DNA of 64,000 nt, taken from NCBI RefSeq assembly GCF_054482595.1, contig NZ_CM137008.1. One strand, given 5' to 3'. Shown here piece after piece: positions 36,001 to 39,000 of the stretch (positions within the stretch are counted from its first letter, which is position 1; the number at the start of each line of letters is the position of its first letter). Position numbers: made by a program.

Positions 36001-39000
36001 TATCGTCTTCTTCACCGCGACGATTAGAAACCGTAAGAATAGCAATACGGGTCGGGATAAATTCAGTGCTTACCTGACTCATCTGATCTCTCCTTTTGAC
36101 GTTTTAGCCGCCAATGTACGATAAGTTTTGCGTAATACCGGTGTTGTTTTGATGCAGGAAATGGGTCTGTTTCTTCTCCCGCAGCGCCGCTGAAATACGC
36201 GCTTCCAGCACCTGTTGCTGGGTATCGTCTTCCAGCAGATCGCGCAGGTTAACGCCGCCTTCACCAAACAGGCAGAGATGGAGTTTACCAATGGAGGAAA
36301 CGCGCAGACGGTTGCAAGTGGCGCAGAAGTCTTTTTCATACGGCATGATAAGGCCAATCTCTCCGGCGTAATCCGGATGACAAAAGACTTGCGCGGGACC
36401 GTCGCTGCGTTGACGTAATTGGTGGATCCAGCCGCGACGCAGTAGCTCGTCACGCAGAACCTGACCAGAGATGTGATGCTTACGGAAGAGCTCGCTGCCC
36501 TCGCCCGTTTCCATCAGTTCGATGAAACGCAGCTGGATAGGGCGATGCTGGATCCAGTTCAGAAAGGTGTCGAGCTGGTGATGATTAACATCACGCATCA
36601 GCACGGTATTGACTTTGACCTTCTCAAAACCGGCCTCAAATGCAGCATCAATCCCTGCCATGACCTGGTTGAATTTATCCTGCCCGGTAATAGCGTGAAA
36701 CTGGCGGGCGTCCAGACTATCAACGCTGACGTTGATGCCAGTAAGTCCAGCATCGCGCCAGTTCGCCACATCGCGTTCCAGACGGTAACCATTGGTGGTG
36801 ACCGCTATCTGGCGAATAGCGTCGTTTTCTCGCACAGCGGCGATGATATCGGTAAAGTCGCGGCGTAAAGACGGCTCACCGCCTGTCAGGCGCACTTTTT
36901 CGGTGCCCAGACTGGCGAAGGCGCGCGTAACCCGGCGAATTTCATCGACGGTCAGAAAGCCTTTATTGGTGACGCCGCTCGGTTTGTAGCCATCCGGCAG
37001 GCAGTAGGTGCAACGAAAGTTACACACATCGGTAATCGACAGGCGCAAGTAGTAAAACTTACGCGCAAATGCATCAGTCAGTTGTGAAGCCATGTACACC
37101 TTTCCAGATACGGGAGGCGAAGTCATTTCTTCCTTCGCCCTGGTGGCAATCTTTACGAGCATTGTCACGGCCAAAGCACCATATCAGTTGACCCAGGTGC
37201 AGAGGCTAGAGTGTTTAGTGGTTAAGCCGATACTAGCGTGTAAATGAGATTTTTACCATCCACACTTTCGCTATGTAATCATGTATATAGCGTCATGATC
37301 GTGCTATTTCGCTACAGAATAAGGGAAAATGGCGGTTTTACTTTGATATACATCATCAGGGAGGCATAGCGTGCATCGTCCTTTAGAGGTAGAAGAAAAT
37401 AGTTTGTATCCTCAATATTGGCAGGTTAATTGCTGTTTCCCCGCAATTTGCGCTACTGTAGCGCGGATAATCTGACTCCAGGAAACTATATGCGCAATCG
37501 TACGCTGGCTGATCTTGATCGTGTCGTTGCTCTCGGCGGAGGGCATGGACTGGGACGCGTTCTCTCATCACTTTCGTCTTTGGGTTCTCGTTTAACGGGT
37601 ATCGTCACCACCACGGATAATGGTGGCTCGACGGGGCGTATTCGCCGTTCAGAAGGCGGCATTGCCTGGGGCGATATGCGCAACTGCCTTAACCAGCTGA
37701 TAACTGAACCCAGCGTCGCTTCCGCAATGTTTGAATATCGTTTCGGCGGTAATGGCGAACTTTCCGGGCACAACCTTGGAAACCTGATGTTGAAGGCACT
37801 GGATCACCTTAGCGTGCGACCTCTTGAAGCGATCAATCTGATTCGAAATCTGCTGAAAGTGGACGCACATTTGATTCCGATGTCGGAGCATCCTGTTGAT
37901 CTGATGGCGATTGACGATCAGGGGCATGAAGTTTACGGCGAGGTCAATATCGACCAGTTAACTACGCCGATTCAAGAGTTATTGTTAACGCCTAATGTAC
38001 CCGCAACGCGTGAGGCGGTTCACGCTATCAATGAAGCGGATCTCATCATTATTGGGCCTGGCAGTTTTTATACCAGCCTGATGCCCATTCTGCTGCTGAA
38101 GGAAATCGCGCAGGCATTACGCCGCACGCCAGCGCCGATGGTCTATATCGGCAATCTGGGGCGTGAGTTGAGTTTACCTGCGGCCAATTTGAAACTGGAA
38201 AGCAAGCTGGCAATTATGGAGCAGTATGTTGGTAAAAAGGTCATTGATGCGGTCATCGTCGGGCCAAAAGTGGATGTCTCGGCGGTGAAAGAGCGGATTG
38301 TGATTCAGGAGGTGCTGGAGGCCAGCGATATTCCGTATCGTCATGACCGCCAGTTGTTACATAGCGCACTGGAAAAGGCGTTACAGGCTTTAGGTTAACG
38401 GAAATCCGAAGGAAAACTCCGGCTTCCTGTTGAAGACAAAGTGCGCGTTGTTTATGCCGGATGCGGCGTGAACGCCTTATCCGGCCTACAAACCGCGCTA
38501 ATTCAATGTATTGCAGAATCATGTAGGCCTGATAAGCGTAGCACATCAGGCAATTTTGCTTTTGTCATCTGTCTTCTTCGTTATCCTGTCACGAAGCCGC
38601 GATAAACAATTCACGCAGCTGATGCAACTGGTCACGAATTTGTGCCGCTTCTTCGAACTCCAGATTCTGCGCGTGTTGCATCATTAACCCTTCCAGCTCA
38701 TGGATTTTCTGTTGCAACGCTTTAGGCGACATATCCATCGGCACATTATCCGGCTCAACAATCGGTCGCGATTTTCCTCTGCCCTTCGCTTTGGTTTTAG
38801 CAATGTTCTGCCCCAACGCCAGGATATCGACCACTTTCTTGTTCAAGCCTTGCGGCGTAATGCCGTGTTCCTCGTTGTACTTCTGCTGTTTCTCGCGGCG
38901 ACGTTCGGTTTCGCCAATCGCTTTCGCCATTGATGGGGTGATCTTATCGCCGTAGAGAATCGCTTTACCGTTAACGTTACGTGCCGCACGACCAATGGTC

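Follow-up and report, generated by a model that had tools for sequence, protein, structure and literature searches.

The divergent moaA-ybhK intergenic region of Escherichia coli raises a simple question: which RNA and DNA signals occupy it, and how could they act together on moaABCDE? We examined this region within a 64,000-nucleotide (nt) stretch of contig NZ_CM137008.1 (RefSeq assembly GCF_054482595.1), referred to below as the window. The window comes from E. coli; a query of 801 nt around the locus was 100% identical to the O157:H7 strain PV15-279 and was recovered, at 95-100% identity, in 5424 of 5426 complete E. coli genomes. On the window strands the gene order reads uvrB < ybhK(yvcK) > < moaA-moaB-moaC-moaD-moaE, and the region between moaA and ybhK covers 37094-37489 (396 nt). 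It encloses the interval 37094-37430, for which an earlier reading of the raw sequence (the original prediction) had expected a molybdenum cofactor (Moco) riboswitch, anaerobic and ModE controls of moaABCDE and a divergent ybhK promoter. That prediction was offered as established knowledge, a basis that we find apt; the feature was known before and carries an annotation. The earlier observation is confirmed and its interpretation is supported: with high confidence, we identify the interval as the control region of E. coli moaABCDE, composed of the Moco riboswitch and two promoters under FNR and ModE control. The refinements made here concern the strand, the exact boundaries of the riboswitch (37081-37225), the part that it shares with the start of moaA, and the type and location of the ybhK promoter.

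The Moco riboswitch of the moaA leader

When the whole window was compared with Rfam 15, the Moco RNA motif (RF01055) matched the minus strand at positions 37081-37225, covering the model from end to end (1-135 of 135), with 104.5 bits against a gathering score of 36 and an E-value of 5.9e-25 (8.3e-27 in a local scan). This is the sole Moco match in the 64 kb, and a permissive local scan of 36800-37700 returned no other Rfam family at E <= 1. The check proposed with the original prediction, a search with the Rfam Moco model, had named the lack of a significant match as its refutation; what it returned was a strong match. The RefSeq/PGAP feature "molybdenum cofactor riboswitch" has identical 145-nt coordinates. 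Our own covariance model, built from 15 gammaproteobacterial leaders with the Rfam structure, also matches exactly one site in the window (37083-37234, 139.9 bits). Collectively, the covariance-model match, the RefSeq annotation, the near-identity to the tested K-12 element and the covariation over 111 sites described below bear out the predicted riboswitch in the moaA leader.

Its predicted location stood in part. The region was right, but the riboswitch fills only 37094-37225 of the proposed interval, lies on the minus strand and extends 13 nt past the start of moaA; what remains of the interval consists of promoter and operator sequence. The element begins 2 nt upstream of the proximal transcription start S1. 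For annotation, it matters that this minus-strand element overlaps the first 13 nt of the moaA coding sequence. The same setting, directly upstream of moaABCDE and overlapping its start, was found in all 16 enterobacterial loci tested, where RF01055 scored 79-104 bits.

Projection of the Rfam consensus structure onto the window places all five stems, P1-P5, around a multistem junction (Table 1), and the conserved junction sequence CGCCUCCCGU-N3-UGGAAAGG is present. An outer extension of P1 is formed by 37223-37220 pairing with 37090-37087. In P2, an internal bulge carries two receptor halves, CCUGGG (37197-37192) and UAUGG (37183-37179), the second of which we take to be the canonical half of a tetraloop receptor. 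Together with the loop sequence of P4, this bulge may form a tetraloop/receptor tertiary contact. Compensatory changes in P3 are seen in enteric relatives. The presence of P3 places the window element in the class that Regulski et al. tied to Moco and not to the tungsten cofactor. The Shine-Dalgarno (SD) run of moaA is embedded in the same fold: its GGUG (37100-37097) pairs with 37209-37213, and the AUG stands 1 nt past P1. Since the SD is located inside P5, the junction and P1, this organization fits repression of translation when Moco is bound.

A further AUG, in frame with moaA, occurs at 37126-37124 in the loop and 3' strand of P4, with AAGGAAG before it (37124-37137, minus strand). MoaA is often called from this codon, with 340 instead of 329 amino acids (aa), 11 residues too long, as in the protein clusters P0002 (5577 members) and P0043 (2820 members). 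The longer form is probably a mis-call caused by the riboswitch sequence.

To what extent is the structure supported beyond the single match? A pattern scan for CGCCTCCCGT-N3-TGGAAAGG-N-G (19 specified bases), with one genome per species, returned at least 120 loci in many phyla. The covariance model recovered 111 sites in the window and 99 loci searched, every locus searched being confirmed. Over these sites, 87.2% of the cells are paired against 32-50% with slid partners, the covariation score is 0.435 against at most 0.092, 34 of the 41 pairs show double changes, and none of 500 shuffles reached the observed values, all of this for an alignment fitted to the model and for sites preselected by their conserved 3' pattern. 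The P3 helix is present at approximately 20-26 of the 111 sites, about a quarter, and most of the sites are of the P3-lacking type. The original prediction had noted that the leader contains paired segments; by folding energy these are not significant (z = -0.44), while the structure gains its support from covariation in the aligned sequences and not from energy.

Several metagenome-assembled genomes carry two or three copies of the motif per locus (ten loci). Some of the copies stand in close tandem, for example in L020 (5561-5687 and 5704-5828), much like the tandem arrangements described by Regulski et al.

The window is closely related to the leader on which the riboswitch was tested. Over 37050-37520 (471 nt) it differs from K-12 MG1655 by two single-nucleotide polymorphisms (SNPs; 99.6% identity), both within the riboswitch, which is identical at 143 of 145 positions. 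There is no difference over 37226-37518, and the S1 -10, S2, ModE and FNR elements are unchanged. For the K-12 RNA, in-line probing was consistent with the model, and induction of Moco synthesis led to a more than 3-fold repression of a translational fusion under a constitutive promoter (Regulski et al. 2008, PMC2408646). In the same work, mutations that disrupt P3 removed control and compensatory ones brought it back (M1/M2), deletion of P3 abolished it, and repression required moaA, mogA, modC and moeA, tungstate being without effect. The ribosome binding site was placed within the P1-forming nucleotides (Fig. 3 legend of that paper). Judging from this leader, which differs at 2 of 145 positions, the window allele would be repressed in the same Moco-dependent manner.

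Several observations weigh against this reading of the locus. The folding energy of 37240-37070 is not significant, with a minimum free energy (MFE) of -46 kcal/mol against -44.2 +/- 4.1 for shuffles (z = -0.44). For the 145 nt alone, the Rfam fold has -31 to -33 kcal/mol against an MFE of -40.2, being 7-9 kcal/mol less stable, and the MFE fold, in silico, pairs the SD with the 5' strand of P2 instead. The receptor half CCUGGG departs from the canonical CCUAAG. As to the two SNPs, 37181 is U here and C in K-12, within the receptor bulge of P2 (UAUGG versus UACGG), and 37225 is T here and A in K-12, at position -2 of S1 and unpaired in the model; the latter position is A in K-12 and in all eight other enteric leaders aligned, and also falls inside a FliA motif. 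In vitro binding of Moco to the RNA was not demonstrated, the ligand being unstable (Regulski et al. 2008, PMC2408646), and a 2024 paper still calls the exact effector unidentified.

Some of these points would suit a decayed, non-functional relic in this strain, or a chance structure, namely the two SNPs with one in the receptor bulge and an MFE no better than that of shuffles. Such an explanation is nevertheless scarcely credible. The match is full-length with E = 6e-25, the window allele scores slightly above that of K-12 (104.5 versus 103.6 bits), its UAUGG is the canonical receptor half, and the element occurs in 5424 of the 5426 complete E. coli genomes. Since only 353 of the 5424 genomes (at most ~6.5%) have at least 99% identity over the 61 nt around 37181, the variant corresponds to a minority, O157-type allele.

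Expected repression at the ribosome binding site and its alternatives

How could this element control moaA? As is established for this operon, two tandem minus-strand promoters make the moaA mRNA, and both transcripts carry the 145-nt riboswitch (37225-37081). The distal start, S2, would be activated anaerobically by FNR bound at its upstream box, and S1 would be the proximal, ModE-controlled promoter (Table 1). The expression platform would be built into the aptamer, with GGAAAGGUG running from the 3' strand of P5 through the junction into the 3' strand of P1, and with the 5'-terminal nucleotides of the S1 transcript paired to codons 2-3 in the outer P1 extension. Upon accumulation of Moco or a close derivative, the closed P1 would hide the ribosome binding site and leave moaA untranslated, as was shown for K-12 and as would be expected for this allele.

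A different output, namely transcription controlled mainly by premature termination rather than translation initiation, should be considered in light of the RNA ends mapped in K-12. An abundant RNA 3' end, labelled "riboswitch", was found by Term-seq at K-12 position 817052 with 9607 reads, a Rho score of 1.24 ("No") and an intrinsic terminator score of 1.08 (Adams et al. 2021); its equivalent in the window falls 8 nt into moaA. The same study placed another 3' end at 817214 (window 36923). It assigned a Rho score of 3.0 to a termination region at 817336 (window 36801), ~290 nt into the open reading frame (ORF), and observed a more than 2-fold increase of a moaA fusion in rhoR66S. The abundant end, the Rho region and the response to the rho mutation are all compatible with termination as the main output, but we consider it unlikely. 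Indeed, the end at +8 is scored "No" for Rho, its intrinsic terminator score does not reach the threshold of 3, the aptamer is not followed by a terminator hairpin and U-run, the SD lies inside P1, and regulation was shown with a translational fusion on a constitutive promoter. The action of Rho is most simply a consequence of blocked translation, and the two readings are not exclusive. From the K-12 data, repression of translation by the closed P1 would allow Rho to terminate inside the untranslated moaA, and 3' trimming would halt at the foot of the folded aptamer. A stable 5' fragment of ~139 nt, from 37223 to 37085, would remain.

An additional layer involves CsrA, which binds two sites in the aptamer, exposes the SD and activates translation, according to a review. 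The leader contains exactly two GGA motifs, one in P4 (37133-37131) and one in the P5/SD run (37105-37103), and these are the putative CsrA sites, an assignment that we infer here. By opening the aptamer, CsrA would oppose repression. Could a protein, either CsrA or some Moco-binding factor, sense Moco on a structured RNA in place of the RNA itself? That no in vitro ligand binding has been reported and that CsrA binds twice inside the aptamer would agree with such a sensor, which is nonetheless very improbable: no protein mediating Moco repression here was identified (Regulski et al. 2008), and CsrA activates rather than represses. Furthermore, the core is kept across many phyla with covariation, the tetraloop/receptor architecture is typical of ligand-binding RNAs, and the types with P3 go with Moco metabolism, those without it with tungsten-cofactor metabolism. 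Direct sensing by the RNA, with translation as its output, remains the preferred reading.

Promoters and operators of the intergenic region

The rest of the region was examined for the promoters that would deliver the riboswitch transcripts. In the published scheme S1 is +1 and S2 is -87; ModE is described as acting at the former and FNR at the latter, and 131 nt separate S1 from the start codon (Regulski et al. 2008, PMC2408646, which cites Anderson et al. 2000). The construct tested in that work is numbered 1 to 145 from S1, with a forward primer beginning ...ACCACTAAAC and a reverse primer whose end falls at 37079/37080 of the window. A primer used to clone the moaA 5' untranslated region (UTR) starts AACCACTAAAC (Adams et al. 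2021). The positions of this construct and of the primers would place S1 at 37223 and S2 at ~37310. All feature positions are collected in Table 1.

Table 1. Positions of the genes, riboswitch parts, promoters and operators of the moaA-ybhK region in the window (SD, Shine-Dalgarno; UTR, untranslated region)
Feature	Position	Strand	Remarks
moaA coding sequence	36104-37093	minus	329 aa; gene call and RefSeq
RNA 3' end equivalent	37085	minus	K-12 817052 transferred by alignment; 8 nt inside moaA, 3' foot of the riboswitch
moaA start codon AUG	37093-37091	minus	gene call, RefSeq and sequence read
P1 3' strand GGUGUA	37100-37095	minus	holds the 3' part of the SD run
SD purine run GGAAAGGUG of moaA	37105-37097	minus	spans P5 3' strand, junction and P1 3' strand
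P5 (CC...GG), 7-nt loop	37114-37104	minus	GGA motif 2 at 37105-37103; helix 100% paired in the alignment
P4 stem, GAAA tetraloop 37129-37126 (GNRA)	37140-37115	minus	GGA motif 1 at 37133-37131
P3 stem-loop	37168-37143	minus	one A.C mismatch (37165/37146); marks Moco-type versus P3-less "Tuco-type"
P2	37206-37170	minus	internal loop and tetraloop-receptor bulge; 10 of 11 pairs with double changes
P1 5' strand AACACUC	37215-37209	minus	pairs with 37100-37095; P1 pairs show double changes among the 111 sites
Proximal start S1, ModE-dependent	37223	minus	130-nt 5' UTR; inferred from literature constructs and primers
S1 -10 TAGTAT	37235-37230	minus	-12 to -7 of S1; GCTAsTAT in 18/18 leaders
Weak S1 -35-like TGGTAA	37258-37253	minus	17-nt spacer
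10-bp inverted repeat GUGUGGAUGG / UCAUUUACAC	37238-37265	minus	hairpin of ~-9 to -10 kcal/mol; in RNA only in S2 transcripts
ModE operator palindrome CGCTATATACATGATTACATAGCG	37269-37292	.	predicted; inverted repeat, centre ~-57.5 from S1
Distal start S2	~37310	minus	-87 from S1, 217-nt 5' UTR; position from Regulski 2008 Fig. 2 legend
S2 -10 TATTCT	37321-37316	minus	invariant in 9/9 leaders; TAYTCT in 18/18
FNR box TTGATatacATCAT	37343-37356	.	predicted; 9/10 consensus bases, class II-like position
FliA (sigma-28) motif TAGAGTGTTTAGTGGTTAAGCCGATACT	37206-37233	plus	antisense to riboswitch 5' end and S1 promoter
Sigma-54 (-24/-12) element TTGGCAGGTTAATTGCT for ybhK	37418-37434	plus	ChIP-seq in K-12; window sequence identical to K-12
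ybhK/yvcK start codon	37490-37492	plus	preceded by SD AGGAA at 37480-37484

The operators were compared among 18 leaders, including Escherichia, Citrobacter, Kluyvera, Pseudocitrobacter, Salmonella, Enterobacter, Cronobacter, Atlantibacter, Shimwellia and Phytobacter. The motif TATAT-N7-TACAT at 37273-37289, inside the ModE palindrome, is the one match to TATAT-N7-TAYAT in the 64 kb, against 0.11 expected, and the ModE box is present in 17 of the 18 leaders, at a practically fixed distance of 37 +/- 2 nt from the S1 -10 element. The FNR box and the S2 -10 element are found in all 18, with an invariant gap between them. Chromatin immunoprecipitation with arrays (ChIP-chip) and with sequencing (ChIP-seq) gave FNR peaks assigned to ybhK//moaA; given in older K-12 coordinates, they convert to ~37379 and ~37285, the offset having been checked against the sigma-54 and FliA motif centres. 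The unique, regularly spaced ModE motif, and the 9/10 FNR box with its invariant spacing and the ChIP peaks, support the ModE and anaerobic controls that had been expected here. Two details of the FNR assignment go the other way: the centre of the box is -39.5 to -40.5 from the literature S2, against a canonical -41.5, and the number of FNR consensus matches in the window (6 versus 3.07 expected) is not significant alone. The other one-mismatch FNR-like matches are at 6994, 12521, 21118, 21703 and 46609, their number being near chance.

A simple sigma-70/terminator scan recovered none of the known promoters, which, for those of moaA, is expected of activator-dependent promoters. Its matches, a promoter-like site inside ybhK and a weak terminator-like one at 37505-37492, are both at chance level.

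On the DNA, the inverted repeat of Table 1 covers -42..-15 of the S1 promoter, where it overlaps the -35 and the spacer. The hairpin reaches z = -3.9 in the window, and z <= -3 only in Escherichia, Citrobacter and Kluyvera. Its covariation is weak, with 68% paired against 38-48% for slid partners and with 13 of 500 shuffles reaching the covariation score. As a family-wide conserved element it was rejected, being strong in three genera only and weakly covarying. It is also unlikely that the hairpin (37265-37238) is a functional, lineage-specific module of Escherichia, Citrobacter and Kluyvera. If it were, it might insulate the folding of the riboswitch from the 87-nt S2-specific leader, or it might give anaerobic S2 transcripts a response to Moco unlike that of S1 transcripts. 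Many enterobacterial leaders (thirteen loci) have unrelated hairpins of 13-36 nt inserted between S1 and P1, the E. coli leader being among the shortest. Because of these insertions, the outer P1 extension (37223-37220/37090-37087) is not general. The hairpins between S1 and P1 of other genera could play the role considered for the S2 hairpin.

On the opposite side of the region, the expected divergent ybhK promoter held in an altered form. A sigma-54 ChIP-seq site, OS05, is oriented to ybhK with a predicted start 45 bp from the start codon (Bonocora et al. 2015), and EcoCyc lists the sigma-54 site upstream of ybhK as a predicted promoter. ybhK would be served by this predicted sigma-54 element at 37418-37434 and not by one of the sigma-70 type; the element straddles 37430, the end of the interval first proposed. 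Since the reported promoter is of the sigma-54 type, it is missed by sigma-70 scans. The sequence TGGCA-N6-TTGC at 37419-37433 is one of 4 matches in the window, against 1.35 expected; the others, at 9059, 15765 and 45640, are near chance in number. Of the leaders compared, only those of E. coli and E. albertii carry the -24/-12 motif. The element sits in a ~56-nt stretch that is absent from Kluyvera and Pseudocitrobacter.

A sigma-70 promoter for ybhK, with TTGCTG (37430-37435) as -35 and TACTGT (37454-37459) as -10, was rejected, TTGCTG being the -12 of the published sigma-54 site; TACTGT is kept only as a conserved -10-like block. The same conserved block contains a perfect palindrome, GCGCTAC-T-GTAGCGC (37450-37464, plus strand), 26-40 nt upstream of the ybhK ATG; at about the equivalent place, another palindrome, TACGTTAACGTA, occurs in other genera. 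In genera without the ~56-nt insertion (seven loci and others), the FNR box lies ~61 bp upstream of the presumed ybhK start, assuming that the conserved TAAYGT is the -10. From this spacing, a single FNR site might serve both divergent genes in these genera. As to FliA, the -10 of its motif overlaps the moaA S1 -10 on the opposite strand, with the SNP at 37225 as its one difference from K-12. A weak FliA ChIP-seq site upstream of ybhK was reported in K-12, ybhK RNA being unchanged in a fliA deletion (46 versus 46; Fitzgerald et al. 2014).

Might the interval encode a small protein instead? Two ORFs were called on the plus strand, one of 41 aa at 37244-37369, whose frame is open in several relatives, and one of 51 aa at 37092-37247. 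Against the former, Kluyvera and Pseudocitrobacter lack its start codon, stops break the frame in one Citrobacter, the position of the stop varies, no SD is evident, and its apparent conservation falls on the ModE box, the FNR box and the -10 elements. The latter is antisense to the riboswitch and broken in most relatives. Both were rejected on conservation, and an intergenic small protein is most improbable.

Two further elements of the window were noted. The Rfam family naRNA4 (CssrE, a REP-derived nucleoid-associated RNA) matches 12920-12990 on the plus strand with 78.4 bits, above its gathering score. Between ybhK and uvrB, REP-like elements at 38450-38530 give sub-threshold matches to naRNA4 (38.3 bits) and ES036 (20.7 bits); at the equivalent place in K-12 and E. 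albertii the ES036 threshold is passed, a difference due to a few SNPs.

Relation to known systems

The main value of this locus is that of a positive control, a riboswitch missed by ORF tracks having been placed correctly from raw sequence and then confirmed by the Rfam check. The current understanding of Moco regulation is unchanged by it.

The closest known system is the K-12 moaA Moco riboswitch itself (RF01055, PMC2408646), with the same locus, the gene order uvrB-ybhK<>moaABCDE, a 145-nt element, stems P1-P5 including P3, and the SD-in-P1 platform; over the 471 nt aligned, the window differs from it by U37181 and T37225 only. The P3-lacking variants of the motif, proposed as sensors of the tungsten cofactor, have in common with it the core of P1, P2, P4 and P5 and the junction CGCCUCCCGU...UGGAAAGG. 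The window element instead has P3 and belongs to the Moco-associated class, and the E. coli RNA is unresponsive to tungstate.

The operators also follow known designs. ModE operators have the consensus TATAT-N7-TAYAT inside a longer palindrome, as at modA and moaA. The moaA site of the window fits this consensus, and ModE would be an activator here, with the site centred ~-57.5 from S1 and at ~+30 in the S2 unit. As in class II FNR promoters, the moaA box corresponds to TTGAT-N4-ATCAA with one mismatch and lies ~40 bp upstream of the start.

Among other riboswitches, the E. coli thiM (thiamine pyrophosphate) and btuB (cobalamin) elements are translational "OFF" switches, in which a closing helix hides the SD and Rho termination forms a secondary layer. 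The moaA element would likewise hide the ribosome binding site in a ligand-stabilised structure, with Rho as a secondary layer. On the other hand, its SD is situated inside the P1 and P5 of the aptamer itself and not in a separate sequestor helix, and CsrA binds within the aptamer, where it would oppose repression.

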